From a virus (taxonomy: Duplodnaviria > Heunggongvirae > Uroviricota > Caudoviricetes), in the IMG/VR virus record IMGVR_UViG_2713896899_000007, positions 1 through 64,000 of that record: a DNA stretch of 64,000 bases. One strand, 5' to 3'. Position 1 is the first letter of the stretch. Every line of letters begins with the position of its first letter. Both the position numbers and the translations under genes were made by a program. Below, piece by piece: positions 144-44,799 of this stretch. Below the pieces are notes generated by a model, which was not told the DNA's origin, ran no database searches, and saw only the letters and a program-made list of their open reading frames with translations.

Positions 144-3100
144 TCAGTTGCTTGTTGCCCCAACAGTACCGGCAAATTTCAGCCATTGACCTGACGGACT
201 TCTATTACTACGGTAGTGATAAACGAGGATTGCGTTTGTCACTCCACCGTAGTCAGCTTTATGTGACGTTGTTAAACGAATTGTATAATCACCGTTAGGT
301 AGATTAAAAACTTCGATTATAGATTCTGCTAATTCTACAGCACCAAATCCCGTTATATTGTTGATACTGCCAGCATTGAATCCCATAGCATCGCCAAAGC
401 CAATCCAATAACTTTTACTAAATGCCCCATTTGATTTAAGGTGGCTAATGAATGTGGACAAACTCATGCCCATATCCCCACCAGAAACAGAGGAAGTTCG
501 CACAGTCATGCTTGGAAGAGAACTGCTCTTCACATAGGAACTGAGAAGGTTTGTTACCTCTGTTTTCGTATAAGCATTAAGGTTAGCCGCAGTCAAAGTT
601 ATATCGGCAGAGCCATCAAACGCCACACCAGCAATTTTCCTTGCTGTCTGCAATTTTGTGGCGGTTGCAGCATTACCAGTAGTGTTCTGATTACCGGTCG
701 TATTCACACCAGGTAAGTTAATATTGGCTGTACCGTTAAAACTAACACCACCAATAGTACGAGCCGTTTGTAACTTCGTGGCTGAAGCAGCGTTACCAGT
801 CGTATTCTGATTACCCGCTATATTGACGCCCGGCAAGTTAATATTGGCGGTACCATTAAACGATACACCTCCAATTGTTCTGGCAGTTTGCAACTTCGTT
901 GCAGTGGCTGCGTTGCCAGTAGTGTTCTGATTACCGGTGGCATTGACACCTGGAATTGAGTCTTTGGACGTATAAACTTGCGCCCATTCAGACCAACTAG
1001 ATGTATCCGTATCTCGTCGCGAACGTACATGTACAGGTGCATGAGCACCACTTGTACCGCTCCAACCTATGAACAACTCACCTTCACCAACGGCCGTTGC
1101 GCCCTTAAGATGAAGCACATTCCCGTAAGTCGAAGGATAGCCGTTGTTATATGCCTCGTACATCTGCAATCCAGTAGCAGCGCCTTGCGTTGTGCCTGTG
1201 AGCGCAGTAACGCGTCCTCTGGACGTAATTGTTGGTATCGAAATATTCGCAGAGCCGTTAAACGACACCCCGTTAATAGTTCTAGCAGTTTGCAACTTGG
1301 TCGCTGTGGCCGCGTTACCGGTAGTATTCTGATTACCGGCAGCATTAACACCAGGCAAATTAATATTCGCAGTGCCATCGAAGCTAACACCACCGATGGT
1401 TCTTGCTGTCTGCAATTTTGTAGCTGTAGCAGCATTACCTGTGGTGCTTTGATTGCCAGCTTTGTTAACTCCGGGCAAGTCGATGTTGGCAGTTCCGTTA
1501 AATGAAACGCCACCAATCGTTCTTGCCGTTTGAAGTTTTGTAGCGGTTGCGGCATTACCAGTAGTGCTCTGATTACCTGCCGTGTTTACACCAGGCAAAT
1601 TTATGTTCGCAGATCCATCGAAGGCCACGCCGCCGATAGTTCTTGCAGTCTGCAATTTCGTGGCGGTACTCGCATTACCATTCAATGAACCAGTTAATCC
1701 ACCAGTAACAGACAACGGACCTGAAACCGTCCCTCCTGATGTTGATAATGCACCTATATCCGATGGCGTAGGTTTGTATTTTGTATTGTAGTCTCGTCGC
1801 CAGCCTGGAGAATAATCTGTCCCGTGGTTAATATAAGTAAATTGAGCGTTAGCAGTACCACCACCGCTAGATGTTGTTGGTGTGGTAACGCGGATCGTCA
1901 TTGCGGACTTTATCCCCATTACCTCAATTACTGCCCCGGCAAGATGAATATCGCCACAACCAGTATCAGTAATGATTTTGTTGTTGCCATACGACCATGA
2001 GCCTTTACACATCCAGTACGGATGATTAAACGCCCCTTGAGAGTCCAACCATTCGACAAACTGTGCCGTAGTCCAGTTTCCTGCTGTTGTGCTTACAGAG
2101 CCTCCAAATGCTCGACCAGCGCCAATATTTTTCGTGAAGGTATCCTTACCTGGTATATCAGCACCATTCTGGTTCTTCGCCAATCGGCTATTCGCATTGT
2201 CATTCGCAGCTTTAACTGCCTTTGGAGTTGCAGCCAGTGATTCACTGGTGCTATCTGTCGCACTACTAAGTTTCACAACACCTTTAGTTGTAAGGCTTGC
2301 GTCTTCCATCGCAACTGCACCGGCAATCTCTTCAGCACGATCAGCAGCAGCTTCTGCACGAGTCGCAGCAGATTCGGCAGCAGTTTTGCTCTGAGATGCA
2401 GCCGTCGCACTGCCTGCCGCCTCTGTTGCCTTTGTGGATGCCGTTGAAGCACTACCCTTCGCTGCTGATGCCTGCTTGGTCGCCTCATCTTTTGAAGCGG
2501 ATGCCGAGGTGGCTGATGCAGACGCAGAACTTGCAGATTCAGCAGCTGCCGTCTTAGAGGAAGCAGCATTGTCTTCTGAGGCCTTTGCATTTGTTTCAGA
2601 GGTTTTTGCTGCCGATGCTGAATTTTTAGCAGCTGTAGCCTGACTCGTCGCCTCTGTCGCTTTTGTGGTAGCTGTTGTCGCGGATGAAGACGCGCTTTCC
2701 GCAGATCTTCCTGCCGCAGTTGCACTCGATGAAGCACTATCCGCACTTGCTGAGGCTGCGCTGGCTGACGCTTCTGCCGCAGATTTCGAACTGTTTGCAG
2801 ACGATGCACTCTGTTCGGCTGCCGTTTCAGATGCTTTTGCGTTTGTCTCTGACGTTTTTGCTGCCTTAGACGAATTTGCAGCTTCTGTTGCCGATGATGC
2901 CGCCGCGTTTGCACTCGATGAAGCGTTAGTCTCTGATGCTTTGGCTGCATCCTTAGATGCAGAGGCACTGGACGCAGATGTTGCAGCCTCCGATGCTTTG
3001 GTCGATGCTACAGACGCTGATTCTGCTGCCGCTTCTTTTGCGGCTTCTGCGTTCGTTTCAGATTTTTTCGCAGCAGTTGCACTCGCACTTGCAGCACTTT

Positions 3101-3671
3101 GTGAGGAAGCCGCAGCGGATGCACTTTGAGACGCTTGAGAGGCTTTTTCTCCAGCGGTATTGGCGCTTTCTGCTGCTGCGGCAGCACTGGCCGCCGCCTC
3201 ACGAGCTTTGTCGCCAGCAGCGTCAATCGCGTCGGTGTTATTTTTATACCACTCAACGTTTTCGTTGTGCTCGTTGACGATCTGCATTAGCGGCTTAACG
3301 GTCACTTCTGTACCGTCTTCACGCTCGATTGTCACCTCATCCAGAGCAGTCAACCAACTGCGCATGGACTTGGAATCAGCCGACATACGCGACATTAGCG
3401 CAGTAAAGCGCGCGCTAAACTGTGTTAAGTCGCCTTCATAGGTCGTAATGATTCGGCACGGAACTTCAGACTGAGTTTCGCCGGTATAAGGTTCTGAGAG
3501 AACAATATTCGTATCGCTTGTTACGCGCTTGATCTCATACAGCTTATTGTCGGGGCCAATGACGATCATCCCCGGCAACACACCATTAGCTGTTACGTTC
3601 CAGGCTGTCCCAACCCCAACCAGAGTATTGCTACCCTGTGTAAATGTGATAGTACCTTCCCTGTACCACAT
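144..3671 (-). CDS. side tail fibre protein (Stf-like), 1175 aa
   Basis: Ala/Ser-rich low-complexity segment with SETNA...ATPKAVK motifs typical of lambdoid Stf; seven ~40-aa repeats NAATATKLQTARTIGGVSFNGTANINLPGVN (phage tail fibre repeat type). Confidence 0.85.
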   Translation of the reverse strand: MWYREGTITFTQGSNTLVGVGTAWNVTANGVLPGMIVIGPDNKLYEIKRVTSDTNIVLSEPYTGETQSEVPCRIITTYEGDLTQFSARFTALMSRMSADSKSMRSWLTALDEVTIEREDGTEVTVKPLMQIVNEHNENVEWYKNNTDAIDAAGDKAREAAASAAAAAESANTAGEKASQASQSASAAASSQSAASASATAAKKSETNAEAAKEAAAESASVASTKASEAATSASSASASKDAAKASETNASSSANAAASSATEAANSSKAAKTSETNAKASETAAEQSASSANSSKSAAEASASAASASADSASSSATAAGRSAESASSSATTATTKATEATSQATAAKNSASAAKTSETNAKASEDNAASSKTAAAESASSASASATSASASKDEATKQASAAKGSASTASTKATEAAGSATAASQSKTAAESAATRAEAAADRAEEIAGAVAMEDASLTTKGVVKLSSATDSTSESLAATPKAVKAANDNANSRLAKNQNGADIPGKDTFTKNIGAGRAFGGSVSTTAGNWTTAQFVEWLDSQGAFNHPYWMCKGSWSYGNNKIITDTGCGDIHLAGAVIEVMGIKSAMTIRVTTPTTSSGGGTANAQFTYINHGTDYSPGWRRDYNTKYKPTPSDIGALSTSGGTVSGPLSVTGGLTGSLNGNASTATKLQTARTIGGVAFDGSANINLPGVNTAGNQSTTGNAATATKLQTARTIGGVSFNGTANIDLPGVNKAGNQSTTGNAATATKLQTARTIGGVSFDGTANINLPGVNAAGNQNTTGNAATATKLQTARTINGVSFNGSANISIPTITSRGRVTALTGTTQGAATGLQMYEAYNNGYPSTYGNVLHLKGATAVGEGELFIGWSGTSGAHAPVHVRSRRDTDTSSWSEWAQVYTSKDSIPGVNATGNQNTTGNAATATKLQTARTIGGVSFNGTANINLPGVNIAGNQNTTGNAASATKLQTARTIGGVSFNGTANINLPGVNTTGNQNTTGNAATATKLQTARKIAGVAFDGSADITLTAANLNAYTKTEVTNLLSSYVKSSSLPSMTVRTSSVSGGDMGMSLSTFISHLKSNGAFSKSYWIGFGDAMGFNAGSINNITGFGAVELAESIIEVFNLPNGDYTIRLTTSHKADYGGVTNAILVYHYRSNRSPSGQWLKFAGTVGATSN
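560..1700 (-). repeat. tandem ~120-bp coding repeats inside stf (two blocks, 4+3 copies)
   Basis: near-identical DNA units recur about every 120 bp, matching the ATKLQTAR protein repeats. Confidence 0.6.
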
Positions 3672-3763
3672 GTTGAATATGCTCCTTGATTTGGCGGGCT
3701 ATCCTTGCCCGCCATTAAGTAAGTACATACTTATTTTTACCGATGTAAATATTTTTTTCTACA

Positions 3764-6700
3764 TTACAGAAGGCCAATTCTTACTCGTAGGACGTTGTTA
3801 TCGTCATAAACGTCAATCCGCTGACCATTTATGACCAGTCGCCCATTACCTCCGCTATTACCGTTGATCTCAAGCGTTCCATTTTTGCCGAACCGCCATC
3901 CAGATCTACCGCTAACAAAATTGGTAGATTGCAGATCGCCTACTTTTGCATTGGTGATTGTGCCATCCTTGATATACGCACCATTCATATAGGCGATACT
4001 GTTTTCTATAACAAATGGCGTGGTGATCTTCCCGTTAACAGAGTTGACCAAACCAAATCTGTCCGCCTGCACCAAAAACTGAGAAAGACCGGTGGTGTCG
4101 ATACCAAGCGCAATACCGGCAACATACTTCTGCCCTCCGCTCGTTGAAGTCTCCATTTTCAACGTCCACGCGGTTGAGACTTTTTTGTTGGTATCAGCAA
4201 TGGCCGTTGCCTGCTGTTGAATTGTCGCGGTATTTCCATCCACCTCTGCTTTCAGAGTATCGATTCGCCCACTCAGAGCATTATCTGCCTGCGTTCTCGC
4301 TGTCGTTTCAGTTGTTACCGCCGCGGAAATGTTGGCTGCCGTTTGAGACTCTAAGTTTGTGATTTGAGTCGCCAGTGCAGCATCTTGCTCTGTACGCGTT
4401 TTCGTTTCGGTTGCTACAGCCGCTTTAATATCCTCTTTGTATTGAGAGGTCAGCTTGGTGATCTGAGACGACAACGCCGAGTCAGCATCAGTTCGAGCCT
4501 GCGTTTCAACTGCAACGGCCGCACTAATATCTTTCGCTGTCTGTGCTTTTAAACTTGAAACCTCTTTTGTTAAAGCGGTATCACCATCAGCACGAGCCGT
4601 TGTTTCTCTGGCAAGAGATGCCTCGAGATCATTAGCTTTTGCTGTAAGAGACGTAATCTGAGTGGACAATGCACTATCGGCATCAGTCCTTGCCTTTGTC
4701 TCTACAGCAACCGCTGCGGCAATATCAGTTCCGGTCTGTGCTCGCAGGCTGTTAATTTCTCGTGAGAGCGCCTGGTCAGCACTTGCCCTGGCCTCCTGCT
4801 CCTGAGTGATGGCAGCGGATATATCACCGTCAACCTTTGACTGAAGCTGGTTTATTTGTTTGGCTAATGCAGAGTCCCCGCTTGCTCGAGCCTCCTGCTC
4901 ACTACGTATTGCAGCAGAAATATCATCATCAACCTTTGCCTGAAGTTGGGTGATCTGGCTTGCCAGAGCCGAATCTTCCGTTGCTCGGGCTTCTTGCTCT
5001 TCCTTAATAGCTGCGACGATATCGTTGCTTACTTTCGACTCAAGCTGAGTGATCTGTGTCGTCAGAGCTTCATCGGCAGATGTACGAGCCTCCTGCTCTG
5101 TACTAATCGCCGCGCTGATATCTCCTTCAAACTTAGATTGCAGCTGAGTGACACGCTTTGCCAACGCTTCATCGCCATCGGCACGAGCGGTGGACTCTTC
5201 CAGAATACTGGCCTTAATGTCTTCGCCAATTTCTACGCGAATTTCCTCAACCTTCGTGGCCATTGCAGACATATCATCAGCAAAGGTTTTCTGTGTTGTT
5301 GCGATCTTCGCGTTATTGACCATCTGCTTGTGCTGGTCTTCATCTTGACGAAGAGCCAGGTCAATATTTGTTTTGGCTAACGCCTCAATGTTCGTAGTCA
5401 GTTCTGCACTGGCACGATCGACCTCTGCAACCGTCTTTTTCATTTCTTCAACGGCAGCGGAGCTTTCCTCTACCGTTGACTGCAACACTTCCAGTTGTTT
5501 AGCGTTTGCAGCATCGCCTTCAACACGAGCCTCGCTTTCCTTAGCAATAAGAGCTGCTGCTTCATCTCTTGCAGCCTTTATTGCCTCGACTGTATTAGCG
5601 AGAGCTTTATCGTGTTCAGATACGGTGTTTTCGATTTCAACAATTGCAGCATCAGTAGCATCAATTTTTTCAAACGCTTCATTGACCTTGTCGATCGTTG
5701 CCGAAACCTCACCTTTAAGCTCGGTTTGTGCGTTCTCCAAAGCATCGCTACGCTCGTTGAATTTTATTTCAAAATCCGCGAGGTTATCGCTGAACTGCTT
5801 ATCTAATTCAGCTATATCTTCCTTAACGTCGTTTACCGACCCCTCCAAAGATTCGACGCTCTGGTTGATATGCTCATTTAACTCGTCAACTGCTTCTTGA
5901 GAGGCTTTGCTGTTGATGTCCTCAAGCAGAGCCTGACCAAGCTCGGAAGATGTAATTTTGCCAGCCAGGAACGACAGTACATCGCGAGTTGTCGCCTCTG
6001 TACCCAAGTTTGAGTTCGGAGGGCTTAACATACCTCGCTTGTTCGATGCTCGAACCCAGTAATACCACGTTTCGCTATCCCCAAGACCAGCATGTGTAAA
6101 GGTGGTGCTTGCAGACTCTGCGATCAGTTTCGCCGTATCCAGATTGTTGGTCTGGGATGCGTAAACATTAATGTGATCAAGGTCTACCGAATCTGGATTA
6201 ACCCAATTCAGTATCACATTACGATAGTCTCCAACGGCCGTTAATGACGTTGGTGCATCCGGCGGTGTCATTGTGCCCAGCACCTGATAAACGGTACTGA
6301 TAATTTCTGTTTTTTTACCGTTGAATGAAACCGCATACAGTTGGAAGTCGTAGCGTCCATTCTCCGCGACATTAACGATTTCGTATTGCTCTTCGGTTAC
6401 ACGCGCCGATTGCCAGTTCGATACATTGTTTTCATCAGAACGTCGCCAACTGATCCAATACTCTGGAGATTTCCCTTCCCATGTTGCAGTCAGTTTTACT
6501 GACAGGTTGCCCGGGCTTGAGAGGTAAGTCCCTTCAGTGATTTGCAAATTAGACGGCTTGGAGTAAGTCGGGTCCAATACCGTCGTATTCTGCGGGATAA
6601 GCGTTGCACCATTGTCGATCGCCTCATATTTAGACGGATTGTTTTCAACAGCGGTGATGTCAAAGCTACCCGACGTTTCCCCCTGAGCGATGTTAACGAT

Positions 6701-8494
6701 GCGAACGCGCATAGGTTCGAGATCTGGTTCTGTAATTGTCCAGACACCGTTCAAAACAGGCGTTTCCGCTGACGACAGGGCTTTTGAAAACGTAACCTTT
6801 GTTATGTTTTCGCCAGTTTCAAGAACATCGCGTTCAACGATTTTGCCTTCCTGATTCAATATCCGAATAAAGCTGCCGCTTTTAGCTAACGACACAGGCG
6901 CATCGAGAGTGATGCTGTTTTTGGTAAACTCCACAATTCGACCGGAGTTACGTTTACCTGCACGATATTTGTTCTGAATCAGAACGGTTTCACCAGGCAT
7001 CAGAAATGAGGCGTCTAAGCCGGCAGTAAATGTAATTACATCCGACTCCATTCTGGCGGTATACAAAAGCCACAAACCAACTCGGTGAGCCTGGCCTCGG
7101 CTTGTACATCCAAATGCTACGACTTCTGTTTTACGCTCACCATAACGGCGCATTGCGTCCTGATCTTCAACGTACTCGATATTTTGCTTATAACCGTCCT
7201 CCTTGTTGTTGTAGGTTACGAGCGCAACGGATGGGCGATCTTTACGCGCAGAACCTTTATAGGTAAACAGTCCATCTTTGACGTTGGAGTTGGTAAACAT
7301 CATTACCGGATCTGATGGGCTATCCTGCATGATGTTAACCATGCCACCAGCCCAAAACACCATGCCGCGGAATGCACCGGCAATATCCTGAATTAATCGG
7401 TATGCGTCTTGTCGACTGGTGATCTGCGTATTGATTGCAAAGCGTTTCTCTTTACCCCCAAAGCCATCATCGACCTCTTCGTCACAATATCGACCAATCT
7501 GGTAGAGCTGGCCGAGGTCAATCATGGATTCCGACACAAATTGCCCAAGACCATACCGAGTATTGGTAAGCAAATCGTAGAGAATCCACGCAGGGTTTGA
7601 AGAAGACAACAGCTTAAAAGTACCGTCCCATACGCCGACATAAGTATTGGTGTATTCGTTGTAGTTTGACGGTACTCGGATTTTGATACCGCGCACCAAA
7701 TACGAACGGGAAGGCATTGTGCTACCAAACTGCTCTGAATTGACCTTCAAGCCAACAAGAGCAGAGTTAGGGTAGTTCATTGGCGTGTCGACAATCTCAC
7801 CGATGGAATCAACCCATGTGTCGTTGTAGAGGTACTGGCTACTGTTATCATCTGTAAGACGAATTACCCTAACCTTGTATGCACGACCAGGCTTAGGCAG
7901 TTTCAGCTCATAGCTACGGTAATACACGCCGGTTTTCTTTGCCGTTAGCGTGATATCAACGCTTTTCTCACCTTCTGCCACTACATCAGAAAATGTTGCG
8001 TCTCCGTTGGCGATCTGGAATTTGTACTTCACCGTAGTGCCGTTTGTATCGCCAGAGCTTTTATCAACGCTACGTAAAGAGGGGAATTTCATGATGACAC
8101 GAACGCGATCAGCTTCATCGTTATCGATTGAAACCGTAACGTCGTGTGTTTTTTTAAGCTGAATATTTACGGACTTAGGCGTTTCGACAAAATCAAAACC
8201 AGCCATTGGCGTCTGGTCTTGTGAGCCGTCACGAAAATCCCATGTAATACCGCTGAAGTTGGAAGAGCCATCTTCATTCAAGATCGGTAAATCGTCGATG
8301 AAGATCGACTTTGCGCCATTTACCAGGCCACCGATAACCCCCTCGCCAAGAAGGTCGAGGATGGCTGCCATAGCACGAGAATTGACAGTATCATCAGCTT
8401 CAACCGGTGTACGGCTGGAGCTTTTACTTTTCTTGCCACCAGCACCGGCAATAAGAAGCGGTAATTTTTTCTTCTTGAACTGTTCCATGTCCAA
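3764..8494 (-). CDS. host specificity / central tail fibre protein, lambda J-like, 1576 aa
   Basis: N-terminal and central segments match lambda J motifs (SRSYLVRGIKIRVPSNYN...GVWDGTFK, AFGCTSRGQAHRVGLWLL, KYVAGIALG...SQFLVQADRFG); position after I/K/L/M. Confidence 0.9.
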   Translation of the reverse strand: MDMEQFKKKKLPLLIAGAGGKKSKSSSRTPVEADDTVNSRAMAAILDLLGEGVIGGLVNGAKSIFIDDLPILNEDGSSNFSGITWDFRDGSQDQTPMAGFDFVETPKSVNIQLKKTHDVTVSIDNDEADRVRVIMKFPSLRSVDKSSGDTNGTTVKYKFQIANGDATFSDVVAEGEKSVDITLTAKKTGVYYRSYELKLPKPGRAYKVRVIRLTDDNSSQYLYNDTWVDSIGEIVDTPMNYPNSALVGLKVNSEQFGSTMPSRSYLVRGIKIRVPSNYNEYTNTYVGVWDGTFKLLSSSNPAWILYDLLTNTRYGLGQFVSESMIDLGQLYQIGRYCDEEVDDGFGGKEKRFAINTQITSRQDAYRLIQDIAGAFRGMVFWAGGMVNIMQDSPSDPVMMFTNSNVKDGLFTYKGSARKDRPSVALVTYNNKEDGYKQNIEYVEDQDAMRRYGERKTEVVAFGCTSRGQAHRVGLWLLYTARMESDVITFTAGLDASFLMPGETVLIQNKYRAGKRNSGRIVEFTKNSITLDAPVSLAKSGSFIRILNQEGKIVERDVLETGENITKVTFSKALSSAETPVLNGVWTITEPDLEPMRVRIVNIAQGETSGSFDITAVENNPSKYEAIDNGATLIPQNTTVLDPTYSKPSNLQITEGTYLSSPGNLSVKLTATWEGKSPEYWISWRRSDENNVSNWQSARVTEEQYEIVNVAENGRYDFQLYAVSFNGKKTEIISTVYQVLGTMTPPDAPTSLTAVGDYRNVILNWVNPDSVDLDHINVYASQTNNLDTAKLIAESASTTFTHAGLGDSETWYYWVRASNKRGMLSPPNSNLGTEATTRDVLSFLAGKITSSELGQALLEDINSKASQEAVDELNEHINQSVESLEGSVNDVKEDIAELDKQFSDNLADFEIKFNERSDALENAQTELKGEVSATIDKVNEAFEKIDATDAAIVEIENTVSEHDKALANTVEAIKAARDEAAALIAKESEARVEGDAANAKQLEVLQSTVEESSAAVEEMKKTVAEVDRASAELTTNIEALAKTNIDLALRQDEDQHKQMVNNAKIATTQKTFADDMSAMATKVEEIRVEIGEDIKASILEESTARADGDEALAKRVTQLQSKFEGDISAAISTEQEARTSADEALTTQITQLESKVSNDIVAAIKEEQEARATEDSALASQITQLQAKVDDDISAAIRSEQEARASGDSALAKQINQLQSKVDGDISAAITQEQEARASADQALSREINSLRAQTGTDIAAAVAVETKARTDADSALSTQITSLTAKANDLEASLARETTARADGDTALTKEVSSLKAQTAKDISAAVAVETQARTDADSALSSQITKLTSQYKEDIKAAVATETKTRTEQDAALATQITNLESQTAANISAAVTTETTARTQADNALSGRIDTLKAEVDGNTATIQQQATAIADTNKKVSTAWTLKMETSTSGGQKYVAGIALGIDTTGLSQFLVQADRFGLVNSVNGKITTPFVIENSIAYMNGAYIKDGTITNAKVGDLQSTNFVSGRSGWRFGKNGTLEINGNSGGNGRLVINGQRIDVYDDNNVLRVRIGLL
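4170..5300 (-). repeat. ~99-bp tandem coding repeats (about ten 33-aa heptad-like units) inside the J-like gene
   Basis: protein units DISAAIxxEQEARxxADxALxxQITxLxSKV repeat in tandem; matching DNA periodicity visible. Confidence 0.6.
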
Positions 8495-41397: not shown

Positions 41398-41550
41398 AAT
41401 AGAACGCAGAAAACAAATTGTTTTAGGGGCTGAGTAAATCAGAAGGGATTGCGTCTATATGAAAATGCCCAGCAATACGCTGGGCATTGTGAAGAATGGT
41501 TGTTTAGTTACTTAACTTGGTGGCCTGGTTTAGCACCAGCATCCGGGCTT
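41398..41550. repeat. direct repeat copy 2, overlapping the true 3' end of metG
   Basis: homologous to 40540-40690. Confidence 0.6.
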
Positions 41551-43541
41551 AACAGGAAGATATCTTTCCCGCCGGGGCCAGCAGCCATCACCATGCCTTC
41601 GGAGATACCGAAGCGCATTTTACGCGGAGCCAGGTTAGCCACCATAATTGTGTGACGACCAATCAGTGCCTGTGGGTCTGGATAAGCAGAACGGATGCCT
41701 GAGAAGACATTACGCTTTTCACCACCGAGATCCAGTGTCAGGCGCAACAGTTTGTCAGAACCTTCAACAAACTCCGCGTTTTCAATCAGCGCCACACGCA
41801 GGTCAACTTTGGCGAAGTCGTCAAAGGTGATGGTTTCCTGAATCGGGTCGTCAGCCAGTGGGCCAGTAACTGGCGCGGCAGTAGCTTTCACTTCTTCTTT
41901 GGATGCTTCCACCAGTGCTTCCACCTGTTTCATATCGATACGGTTATACAGTGCCTTGAACGGATTCACTTTATGGCCCAGCAGCGGTTGCTGGATACCA
42001 TCCCAGGTCAGTTCTGTATTCAGGAATGCTTCTGCACGTTCAGTCAGTTTCGGCAGTACCGGTTTCAGATACGTCATCAGCACGCGGAACAGGTTAATGC
42101 CCATAGAGCAAATCGCCTGCAGATCTGCATCGCGACCTTCCTGCTTCGCCACCACCCACGGAGCCTGTTCATCGACATAGCGGTTAGCCAGGTCAGCCAA
42201 TGCCATGATTTCACGGATAGCTTTACCAAATTCGCGGCTTTCCCATGCTTCGCCAATCACTTCAGCGGCATCAGTAAAGGTTTTGTACAGTTGCGGGTCA
42301 GCCAGTTCGCTTGCCAGCACGCCGTCAAAACGCTTGTTGATAAAGCCTGCATTACGGGAGGCCAGGTTAACCACTTTGTTAACAATATCGGCATTCACTC
42401 GCTGAACGAAATCCTCCAGGTTGAGATCGATATCATCAATGCGCGAAGAGAGTTTCGCAGTGTAGTAGTAACGCAGGCTGTCAGCGTCAAAATGATTCAG
42501 CCAGGTGCTGGCTTTAATAAAGGTGCCGCGAGACTTGGACATCTTCGCACCGTTCACCGTCACATAGCCATGAACAAACAGGTTGGTCGGCTTGCGGAAG
42601 TTGCTGCCTTCCAGCATGGCAGGCCAGAACAGACTGTGGAAGTAAACGATATCTTTACCGATGAAGTGGTACAGCTCGGCGGTGGAGTCTTTCTTCCAGT
42701 ATTCATCGAAGCTGGTGGTATCGCCGCGCTTGTCGCACAGATTCTTGAAGGAACCCATGTAGCCAATCGGTGCGTCCAGCCAGACGTAGAAATATTTACC
42801 CGGCGCGTTCGGAATTTCAAAACCGAAGTAAGGTGCGTCGCGGGAGATATCCCACTGTTGCAGACCAGATTCAAACCACTCCTGCATTTTGTTTGCCACC
42901 TGCTCCTGCAACGCACCGCTGCGGGTCCATGCCTGCAACATTTCGCTGAAAGAGGGCAGATCAAAGAAGAAGTGTTCAGAATCACGCATTACCGGGGTAG
43001 CACCAGAAACCACCGATTTCGGCTCGATCAGTTCAGTCGGGCTGTAGGTCGCGCCACAAACTTCACAGTTATCGCCGTATTGATCTGGCGCTTTACATTT
43101 CGGGCAGGTGCCTTTCACAAAACGATCCGGCAGGAACATGCCTTTTTCCGGGTCGTACAACTGAGAGATAGTGCGGTTTTTAATAAAACCGTTCTCTTTC
43201 AGGCGAGTATAAATAAGCTCAGACAGCTGGCGGTTCTCTTCGCTGTGCGTCGAGTGATAGTTGTCATAGCTGATGTTAAAGCCTGCGAAATCAGTCTGGT
43301 GTTCCTGACTCATTTCGCCAATCATCTGCTCCGGTGTGATACCAAGTTGCTGTGCTTTCAGCATGATCGGCGTACCGTGGGCATCGTCGGCACAGATGAA
43401 ATTAACCTCGTGGCCGCGCATTCGCTGGTAACGAACCCAGACATCAGCCTGGATGTGCTCCAGCATATGGCCGAGGTGGATTGAGCCGTTAGCGTACGGC
43501 AGCGCGCACGTCACCAGAATTTTCTTCGCGACTTGGGTCAT
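41508..43541 (-). CDS. metG: methionyl-tRNA synthetase (host gene)
   Basis: 677-aa product with HIGH-type motif ([11 protein letters not shown]) and KMSKS; near-identical to enterobacterial MetG from MTQVAKK; the longer track ORF is an upstream in-frame extension. Confidence 0.95.
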
Positions 43542-43698
43542 AGTAGGCATTACTTCTTTGTAGTGAAAAGGGGCTTGATAGTAACAAAATGGCCTTATGT
43601 CTGCCATGTGATAACAGCATTTCTCATAAATGATTAAATGTCGTAGCTGGAGTACACTACAAGGCGACAATTGCGCAAATTAAAATAAAGGAGACGGG

Positions 43699-44799
43699 AT
43701 GAGCGAGTCCAAATCGCCGGATGCCCTGAGAGCAATGGTAGCCGGTACGCTGGCTAATTTTCAGCACCCAACCCTGAAACACAACCTGACTACGCTTAAA
43801 GCGTTACACCATGTTGCGTTGATGGATGACACACTGCATGTCGAACTAATCATGCCTTTCGTGTGGAATAAGCCTTTTGAAGACCTGAAAGAGCAATGTA
43901 GTGGTGATCTGCTCCGTATCACTGGCGCAAAGGCTATTGACTGGAAGCTGTCGTACAACATTGCCACGCTTAAGCGCGTCAAAAACCAACCAGGCATTAA
44001 TGGTGTTAAGAATATTATCGCCGTAAGCTCAGGCAAGGGCGGTGTAGGCAAATCGTCCACAGCAGTAAACTTGGCACTGGCGTTGGCTGCTGAAGGTGCG
44101 AAAGTTGGTATTTTGGATGCCGATATCTACGGGCCATCAATACCAACCATGCTGGGCGCGGAAAACCAACGTCCAACCTCACCGGACGGTACTCACATGG
44201 CACCTATCATGTCTCATGGCCTGGCAACCAATTCAATTGGCTATCTGGTCACCGACGACAATGCAATGGTGTGGCGTGGACCGATGGCCAGCAAGGCGCT
44301 GATGCAGATGTTGCAGGAAACACTGTGGCCTGATCTGGACTATCTCGTTCTCGATATGCCGCCGGGCACTGGTGATATTCAGTTGACGCTGGCGCAGAAC
44401 ATTCCTGTAACTGGTGCGGTTGTGGTAACTACGCCGCAAGACATCGCGCTGATCGATGCGAAGAAAGGCATTGTGATGTTCGAAAAAGTCGAAGTGCCAG
44501 TACTGGGTATCGTTGAAAACATGAGTGTGCATATTTGCAGTAACTGCGGTCATCACGAGCCAATTTTTGGCACCGGTGGCGCACAGAAACTGGCCGAGAA
44601 ATACAACACGCAGTTGTTAGGCCAAATGCCACTTCATATCTCTCTTCGTGAAGATCTGGATAACGGAACACCAACCGTTATTAGTCGTCCAGATAGTGAA
44701 TTTACGGCTATTTATCGTGACCTCGCAGATCGCGTTGCTGCCCAAATGTATTGGCAAGGTGAAGTAATACCTGGCGAAATCGCATTCCGCGCAGTGTGA
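43699..44799 (+). CDS. apbC: Fe-S cluster carrier ATPase ApbC/Mrp (host gene)
   Basis: deviant Walker A SGKGGVGKS and CxxC motif; divergent from metG as in E. coli. Confidence 0.95.
   Translation: MSESKSPDALRAMVAGTLANFQHPTLKHNLTTLKALHHVALMDDTLHVELIMPFVWNKPFEDLKEQCSGDLLRITGAKAIDWKLSYNIATLKRVKNQPGINGVKNIIAVSSGKGGVGKSSTAVNLALALAAEGAKVGILDADIYGPSIPTMLGAENQRPTSPDGTHMAPIMSHGLATNSIGYLVTDDNAMVWRGPMASKALMQMLQETLWPDLDYLVLDMPPGTGDIQLTLAQNIPVTGAVVVTTPQDIALIDAKKGIVMFEKVEVPVLGIVENMSVHICSNCGHHEPIFGTGGAQKLAEKYNTQLLGQMPLHISLREDLDNGTPTVISRPDSEFTAIYRDLADRVAAQMYWQGEVIPGEIAFRAV

Follow-up and report, generated by a model that had tools for sequence, protein, structure and literature searches.

Repetitive shafts and mosaic exchange have been known in phage tail fibers for decades, and the fibers of phage Mu (S/S′) and those of the P1 type are located in invertible segments. 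Duplications of the “His-box” in T4 gp37 and the motif-mediated swapping of adhesins were reportedly described by Tetart et al. in 1996 and 1998, with short conserved motifs acting as in-frame recombination points at which segments are duplicated or exchanged and host range or fiber make-up is altered. The side tail fibers Stf of lambda and StfR of Rac, together with the fiber mosaics of P1 S and p15B, in which modules are shared across unrelated phages, are said to have been treated by Haggard-Ljungquist in 1992 and by Sandmeier in 1992 and 1994. At the structural level, T4 gp34 (PDB 4UXE/5NXF) possesses a thin, repetitive, intertwined trimeric shaft with interspersed globular domains, the triple beta-helix of which has no clear sequence motif according to its authors (PMC5537660). 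The C-terminal stalk of the phage L capsid decoration protein Dec (PDB 6e3c) is unfolded in the monomer; the Dec authors regard their structural model of this stalk as speculative and further speculate that the beta-helical motif could bind carbohydrate (PMC6449081).

The fiber gene considered here lies at one end of a 64,000-nucleotide stretch of viral DNA (the window), which is assigned to an SSU5-like phage-plasmid (siphovirus) of Escherichia coli because of its matches to ~110-kb Escherichia plasmids and to phages Cyrano, CMS-2020a, and SSU5. Over its first 3.8 kb, the part that was compared, the window matches the ~110-kb E. coli plasmid p009_B (NZ_CP048306.1) with 100% identity from position 40 onwards; many other ~110-kb Escherichia plasmids, along with Cyrano and CMS-2020a, are close relatives, while SSU5 is more distant than these two phages. 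The lateral tail fiber gene occupies positions 144 to 3671 on the minus strand (stop codon at 144 to 146) and specifies a protein of 1,175 amino acids (aa), which matches PHROG tail fiber families at an E value of 0. It is present at 99.6 to 100% identity in three ~110-kb E. coli plasmids and at 92.8 to 97.4% in a few others, and many of the database entries for this gene are partial, which calls for caution on the part of annotators and assemblers.

The tail module is lambda-like, with the order of tape measure, minor tail protein L, C40 peptidase, tail assembly protein, and TipJ-like protein being read in the reference plasmid. The TipJ-like protein (1,576 aa) is encoded immediately upstream of the fiber gene by the open reading frame (ORF) at positions 3764 to 8494, which matches the NCBIfam lambda_TipJ model with an E value of 1e-159, yet falls under the curated cutoff. 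An earlier note on this DNA had called the fiber Stf-like, a designation which is borne out by its position, since the gene is located directly 3′ of a TipJ/J-like gene within a lambda-like tail module, as are the genes of lambda Stf and Rac StfR. The designation does not extend to domain content, as the N-terminal region, in contrast to lambda Stf, is without any Pfam match. A search of the whole protein against Pfam and NCBIfam returned zero matches, including none to a prophage tail fiber N-terminal domain of the PF08400 type, which is present in P0097, a homologue with a different N terminus, and a profile scan of the C-terminal half produced sub-threshold noise only. The likeness to the P1 S and p15B mosaics is seen at positions 720 to 1441, which share 80% nucleotide (nt) identity with a P1-type fiber gene.

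The C-terminal half of the fiber harbors seven KLQTAR-anchored units, each exactly 40 aa long and in phase, at positions 558 to 1679 on the minus strand. In a self dot plot of positions 144 to 3671, signal was observed only at offsets of 120, 240, and 360 and of 402 to 1002 (120k + 282), in agreement with the tandem repeat that the earlier note had perceived, and codon-shuffled controls gave signal in 0 of 20 cases. Tandem Repeats Finder (TRF) reported a period of 120 at positions 613 to 950 (2.8 copies, 74% matches, score of 362) and at positions 1276 to 1680 (3.4 copies, 72% matches, score of 390), and a repeat search returned a 300-nt family with spacings of 120, 522, and 120. Positions 500 to 1760 contain nine exact direct repeats that are 12 nt or longer, and composition shuffles of this interval contained a mean of 0.07 repeated 12-mers.

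On the basis of anchor and phase, the complete units U1 (positions 1560 to 1679), U2 (1440 to 1559), and U3 (1320 to 1439) are located in the second of these TRF arrays, and U5 (798 to 917), U6 (678 to 797), and, in part, U7 (558 to 677) in the first, all on the minus strand. U7 departs from the consensus after ...ADITLT, its last 12 residues being degenerate where it enters the tip of the fiber. Anchor spacing alone would place U4 at positions 1200 to 1319 on the same strand, but translation indicates that this unit is split: its N-terminal 29 residues (aa 785 to 813, ending ...ANISIP) are encoded at positions 1233 to 1319 and its C-terminal 11 residues (aa 908 to 918, GVNATGNQNTT) at positions 918 to 950, where the TRF array stops, the two segments summing to exactly 40 aa. 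Partial matches to the unit hidden Markov model (HMM) were also obtained at the position equivalent to the U4 C terminus in relatives. The two blocks separated by a unique domain of ~100 aa that had been described earlier consequently give way to a single array, into whose fourth unit 94 aa are inserted. As to the seven near-identical units of ~40 aa, their count and length stand, while near-identity holds for five of them and only as protein.

The unit consensus, GNAxTATKLQTARTIGGVSFxGxANIxLPGVNxxGNQxTT, represents a very widespread module. A seven-unit profile retrieved 16,111 representative proteins at an E value of ≤1e-3 and 998 at ≤1e-30 among 1.84 billion. The best 150 of these proteins contained 4 to 15 matched stretches each, and local rescanning of the same 150 yielded 4 to 13 units per protein, with a commonest start-to-start spacing of 40 aa and tandem blocks of up to 10. 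The unit is not recognized by any model of Pfam or NCBIfam; PF03406 (“Phage tail fibre repeat”) gave nothing, even at an E value of ≤10, when compared with a single unit or with the whole C-terminal half. Nothing specific to this 40-aa repeat or to SSU5 fiber variation was found in the literature. Within the PDB, the unit motif was encountered in two proteins only: the C-terminal stalk of Dec (6e3c), with E values of 1.6e-4 for the seven-unit profile and 1.9e-10 for a broader one, and, as a single occurrence, PhiM1 gp47 (8vbx). No solved structure of the 40-aa unit was identified, and the Mu fiber chains 5yvq and 8ju3 were not matched by the unit profiles.

Dec shares with the fiber the motif NAxTAxKLxTARTI...SFDGSANI, which in Dec is trimeric and is unfolded in the monomer. 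Unlike the fiber, Dec possesses this motif only once, with seven extra residues inserted; it decorates the capsid, and the structure of its stalk is only modeled. T4 gp34 offers a second likeness, both in the architecture predicted for the fiber, a thin intertwined trimeric shaft with globular domains along it, and through its Gp34_trimer domain (PF21446), which sits between the repeat blocks in the relatives P0003, P0023, and P0103, although the fiber protein of the window itself has no PF21446 match. AlphaFold2 (AF2) modeling of aa 785 to 1175 as a monomer gave a mean pLDDT of 53.5, and both the repeats and the 94-aa insert scored below 50 to 60. Such a model is uninformative as to how the repeats are structured, and its low confidence there is compatible with their folding only as a trimer. 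From the Dec motif, the presence of Gp34_trimer in relatives, and the unconfident AF2 monomer, the unit is probably a trimeric, beta-structured shaft module.

Domains of another kind interrupt, precede, and terminate the array. The 94-aa domain in the loop of unit 4 (aa 814 to 907; positions 951 to 1232, minus strand), which ends ...KDSIP, is present in 256 of the 385 fiber proteins retrieved; by sequence it has no relative in Pfam or the PDB, and its profile matched only WW-domain look-alikes in the PDB, which were insignificant (E value of 0.059). N-terminal to the array, aa 451 to 668 are homologous to the Mu fiber (E values of 1.2e-82 for 8ju3 and 2.3e-17 for 5yvq), this homology covering part of the protein, and phmmer aligned aa 492 to 668 with residues 178 to 354 of 8ju3 (whole-sequence E value of 1.2e-82). 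This region comprises an internal knob domain (aa ~520 to 640; positions 1752 to 2114, minus strand), whose homologue in 8ju3 is the variable part of the Mu S/S′ chimera, and a single copy of PF03406 (aa ~459 to 500; positions 2172 to 2297, minus strand; Pfam E value of 1.1e-19), which matches Mu 5yvq and 8ju3 and is distinct from the 40-aa unit. The fiber differs from that of Mu in that the Mu PDB chains, which are ~500 aa long, contain no match to the 40-aa unit, and no invertible segment was apparent in the gene of the window.

The array is followed by a tip domain of 137 aa (aa 1039 to 1175; positions 147 to 557, minus strand), which is recognized from BLASTP paralogy, from AF2 modeling with Foldseek, and from its being swapped in relatives, and which is predicted to be the probable receptor-binding end. 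The earlier note had considered the distal residues to be unique, a view which is not upheld: the tip and the internal domain at aa ~530 to 640 are paralogues (BLASTP, 33% identity, E value of 3e-11), and the tip shares a fold with part of Mu 8ju3. The tip was the sole moderately confident part of the AF2 model, and Foldseek against the PDB returned one meaningful match for that model, the Mu fiber 8ju3, which was confined to the tip (E value of 4.6e-6). A homologue from Escherichia albertii (P0007) is identical up to aa ~1045 and then continues into a different tip with Peptidase_S74, and the distal part, on such comparisons, is the segment which is exchanged among relatives.

Unit number varies among natural relatives of the fiber, ranging from 4 to 9 by the unit HMM in the 120 closest full-length homologues, and several pairs of otherwise near-identical proteins differ by whole units, exactly 40 or 80 aa, within the array. 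The three longest within-block direct repeats of the window are a 23-nt repeat (ACCGGTAATCAGAACACTACTGG on the coding strand; positions 676 to 698 and 916 to 938), which is spaced by 240 nt and flanks U5 and U6; a 14-nt repeat common to U3 and U1 (AATTTGCCTGGTGT; positions 1348 to 1361 and 1588 to 1601), which is also spaced by 240 nt; and a 14-nt repeat common to U6 and U5 (GCCAATATTAACTT; positions 715 to 728 and 835 to 848), which is spaced by 120 nt. Each of the three coincides with the junction of one natural length variant, where four of the five variant sequences are contigs of short-read or draft assemblies, three of them from Logan and one an NCBI draft. P0001, a fiber of 1,095 aa from a Logan contig which differs from the window by 98 substitutions over 3,288 nt, carries a clean 240-nt deletion corresponding to positions 1362 to 1601 with AATTTGCCTGGTGT at its junction, and P0092 differs from P0023 by a 120-nt deletion whose junction is GCCAATATTAACTT. 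In plasmid NZ_CP146657.1, a perfect 240-nt tandem duplication is bounded by ACCGGTAATCAGAACACTACTGG, such that its third and fourth units, the counterparts of U5 and U6, are repeated at 100% identity within a perfect period-240 tract of 503 nt. P0064 and P0047 are distinguished by a 120-nt indel with the 8-mer TACAGACG at its junction; because the flanks of this indel have diverged, allelic exchange may account for it instead of slippage.

The claim that recombination changes the length of the fiber is, on this evidence, sound as to its outcome, namely whole-unit variants, while the substrate consists of exact microhomologies of 8 to 23 nt and not of how alike the copies are overall; how the indels arose, and in which direction, is read from a few natural variants. 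The resemblance to T4 gp37 lies in the duplication and exchange of segments at short motifs, although the motif, the phage, and the fiber are different ones and the events described here are known from natural sequence comparison, without a phenotype. No phage recombinase is named in the RefSeq annotation of a 50-kb part of the reference plasmid, the counterpart of most of the window; phage Rad52-like recombinases can recombine short and diverged homologies (PMC3945230). A sliding-identity census placed clusters of breakpoints at aa 493, 638/639, 748, 765, 783, 833, and 990 to 996, positions which are in part artifacts of forced global alignment over different unit numbers and which lend weak support.

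Whether the DNA repeat is itself the product of recent duplication may be judged from a comparison of the units at both levels. The five complete units share 82 to 95% aa identity and 69 to 79% nt identity in pairwise comparisons, while U4 and U7 share 53 to 65% aa identity with the others because their last 11 to 13 residues run into other domains. Over all units, nt identity ranges from 54 to 79%, and third-position identity between units is 23 to 57%, a similarity no higher than protein identity predicts; contrary to the earlier suggestion, the copies are not similar enough in DNA for ordinary homologous recombination. The same codon is used at 231 of 619 shared degenerate-residue positions, against an expectation of 216 ± 13.5 under random draw from the codon usage of the gene; the mean nt identity between units is 0.658, as opposed to 0.651 in simulated random recoding, and the longest in-register exact run between units is 20 nt, as opposed to a simulated median of 17 nt. 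Codon sharing is that of random synonymous choice, so that constraint on the protein, and not recent duplication, accounts for the 120-bp repeat in the DNA; the synonymous sites between units are saturated and show no sign of a recent duplication or of gene conversion. The positional orthologues of U4 to U7 in other fiber genes are 95 to 99% identical at the nt level, whereas paralogues within the gene reach at most 79%, and the unit copies must therefore be older than the divergence of these fibers. Active avoidance of codon identity, as selection against recombination, was also considered and rejected, as codon sharing is slightly above and not below random. Concerted evolution or gene conversion among the units was likewise rejected, on the contrast between positional orthologues and within-gene paralogues. 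The earlier note had implied a recent tandem amplification at the DNA level, with young copies between which RecA-type unequal crossing-over or slipped-strand mispairing would be possible. The TRF arrays, the variable unit number of relatives, and the perfect duplication in NZ_CP146657.1 agree with this implication, but it is at odds with the near-random codon sharing, the low third-position identity, the shortness of the in-register exact runs, and the age of copies that each have a positional orthologue elsewhere, so that it is largely refuted for the window and considered very improbable.

Two further readings concern the function of the repeat. Were the units receptor-binding (e.g., glycan-binding) sites, their copy number would tune avidity and not fiber length, which would accord with the carbohydrate-binding speculation of the Dec authors for the same beta-helical motif (PMC6449081) and with the surface-loop residues (PGVNxxGNQxTT) that differ between units. 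The core of the unit is, however, conserved over 16,111 clusters with many tips and hosts, for which a structural role is a better fit than specificity, and variation of the kind that would affect specificity is found among relatives chiefly in the knobs and the tip; we regard this reading as decidedly unlikely. Programmed hypervariation, in the form of a contingency locus, a diversity-generating retroelement (DGR) target, or an invertible segment like those of Mu and P1, is suggested by domains held in common with Mu S/S′ and P1-type fibers, but is extremely improbable. The array of the window contains no identical or simple-sequence repeats, and the near-identical units that a DNA-level contingency locus would possess were not found, the longest in-block exact repeat being 23 nt; the variants are whole-unit indels at microhomologies and not point hypervariation, and no invertase is annotated adjoining the fiber gene or within 4 kb downstream of it in the reference plasmid. 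It is, in our assessment, likely that the 120-bp periodicity reflects, in the DNA, the 40-residue shaft units that are selected as protein, the number of which shifts at short exact matches.

According to this preferred reading, the distal shaft of the lateral fiber, a trimer, would be made up of seven widespread 40-residue modules, each contributing one fixed increment, perhaps roughly 2 nm, of an intertwined beta-structured trimer. Globular knobs would be inserted in the loop that succeeds the “...ANIxL/IP” strand, or would come after it, as proposed for the 94-aa insert in unit 4 and for the tip after unit 7. The units, which are old, would be kept alike by selection on the protein, their synonymous sites having become fully randomized, with neither concerted evolution nor long DNA homology among them. 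Their number would change rarely and always in frame, through deletion or duplication between exact matches of 8 to 23 nt left in phase, by replication slippage or by short-homology recombination or annealing; a fresh duplication would leave behind perfect 240-nt repeats, themselves expected to be unstable. As these conserved units recur in many different fibers, they would also sit near the sites at which knobs and tips differ. It is tempting to view the array as an evolved length-adjustment device, in which conservation of the protein with randomized codons keeps the shaft genetically stable, a few in-phase microhomologies permit whole units to be gained or lost now and then so that its reach is re-tuned to the thickness of O-antigen or capsule, and the units act as universal sockets for knobs and tips, but this extension is a speculative and rather unlikely one; if true, universal in-frame sockets would permit knobs and tips to be swapped between unrelated phages and phage-plasmids.

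The finding is an ordinary one, of a known kind of fiber repeat with well-documented length polymorphism. What it adds is a very common 40-aa unit which lacks a Pfam or NCBIfam model and an identified solved structure, a detectable DNA tandem repeat which is fully explained by protein constraint with saturated synonymous sites, and whole-unit polymorphism which, in SSU5-like phage-plasmids from nature, falls exactly on the three longest in-phase microhomologies. These provide concrete sites for the measurement of rearrangement rates and for the engineering of fibers of graded length.

The region downstream of the fiber gene differs from what had been envisaged, namely a next gene running off the end of the window. 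The 3′ side of the fiber stop codon is occupied by an inverted repeat, followed by ATGAGCTATGGTGC (positions 53 to 40), which represents the start of an 84-aa ORF of p009_B, and then by the end of an IS2 element, such that the downstream ORF is interrupted after 14 nt. No Tfa-type gene is recognizable downstream of the fiber gene, judged from the p009_B annotation and the ORF cut by IS2, and a chaperone encoded by the adjacent gene appears doubtful. The fiber gene of p009_B is followed by the 84-aa ORF, a 188-aa ORF, and then cor, the products of the two former being annotated as hypothetical. In the relative L008, which possesses the same tip, a holin-like gene lies directly after the fiber gene and the 84-aa/188-aa cassette is absent from that location; these two genes are therefore not obligatorily linked to this tip. 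The terminal ~40 nt of IS2 are located at positions 1 to 41, with 97.6 to 100% matches to IS2 ends and to InsD-annotated DNA, and homology to the plasmid begins at position 40.

Both halves of the fibre gene's array of 40-aa shaft units, which are separated by the 94-aa insert (window 951 to 1232), are connected by in-frame exact repeats of 13 to 20 nt at spacings of 402 to 882 nt, including a 20-mer at 640 to 659 and 1402 to 1421 (spacing, 762 nt). Recombination at these half-linking repeats would, on the basis of their position in the sequence, result in the loss of the insert together with several units; the homologous fibre protein P0103 harbors six units in succession, without an insert. 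A large share of the database entries among the homologues of the fibre C-terminal half is tagged as "partial," and breaks in or near the repeat region may be frequent in draft assemblies.

Residues ~150 to 450 of the fibre (window ~2300 to 3200) are of low complexity and rich in Ala, Ser, and Thr, with periodicities of 21, 189, and 252 nt apparent in the corresponding DNA. A 105-aa indel distinguishes relatives (the homologues P0004 and P0037) within this region, which, as judged from sequence, is a second part of the same fibre with variable length. A weak match (E value of 0.0011) of these residues to the L-shaped tail fibre of T5 (PDB 8hqz) was also obtained.

The gene at 3764 to 8494 (minus strand) encodes a 1,576-aa TipJ-like protein with a long C-terminal extension composed of ~33-aa (99-nt) repeats, especially at 4791 to 4999, rich in DISAAI..EQEAR..AD.AL. 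While TRF detected only 2.1 copies (75% identity), translation revealed many more degenerate ~33-aa copies, and the extension looks, in sequence, like a coiled-coil central fibre.

Downstream (3') of the fibre gene, the reference plasmid p009_B harbors a cassette (3152 to 4014 of the retrieved stretch, L001) comprising an 84-aa ORF, a 188-aa ORF, and cor, encoding a phage exclusion lipoprotein. In some relatives, this cassette separates the fibre gene from the holin gene; others that share the same fibre tip (L008) lack it. At the very start of the window (region 1 to 53), ~40 nt of an IS2 terminal repeat are present, and this IS2 end breaks the 84-aa ORF (ATG at 53 to 51) past its initial 14 nt, an insertion absent from the closest plasmids.

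The ORFs at the metG (methionine-tRNA ligase; 41508 to 43670, minus strand) and apbC (43699 to 44799, plus strand) positions, assigned by position from the reference-plasmid annotation, are host-type housekeeping genes aboard the phage-plasmid.
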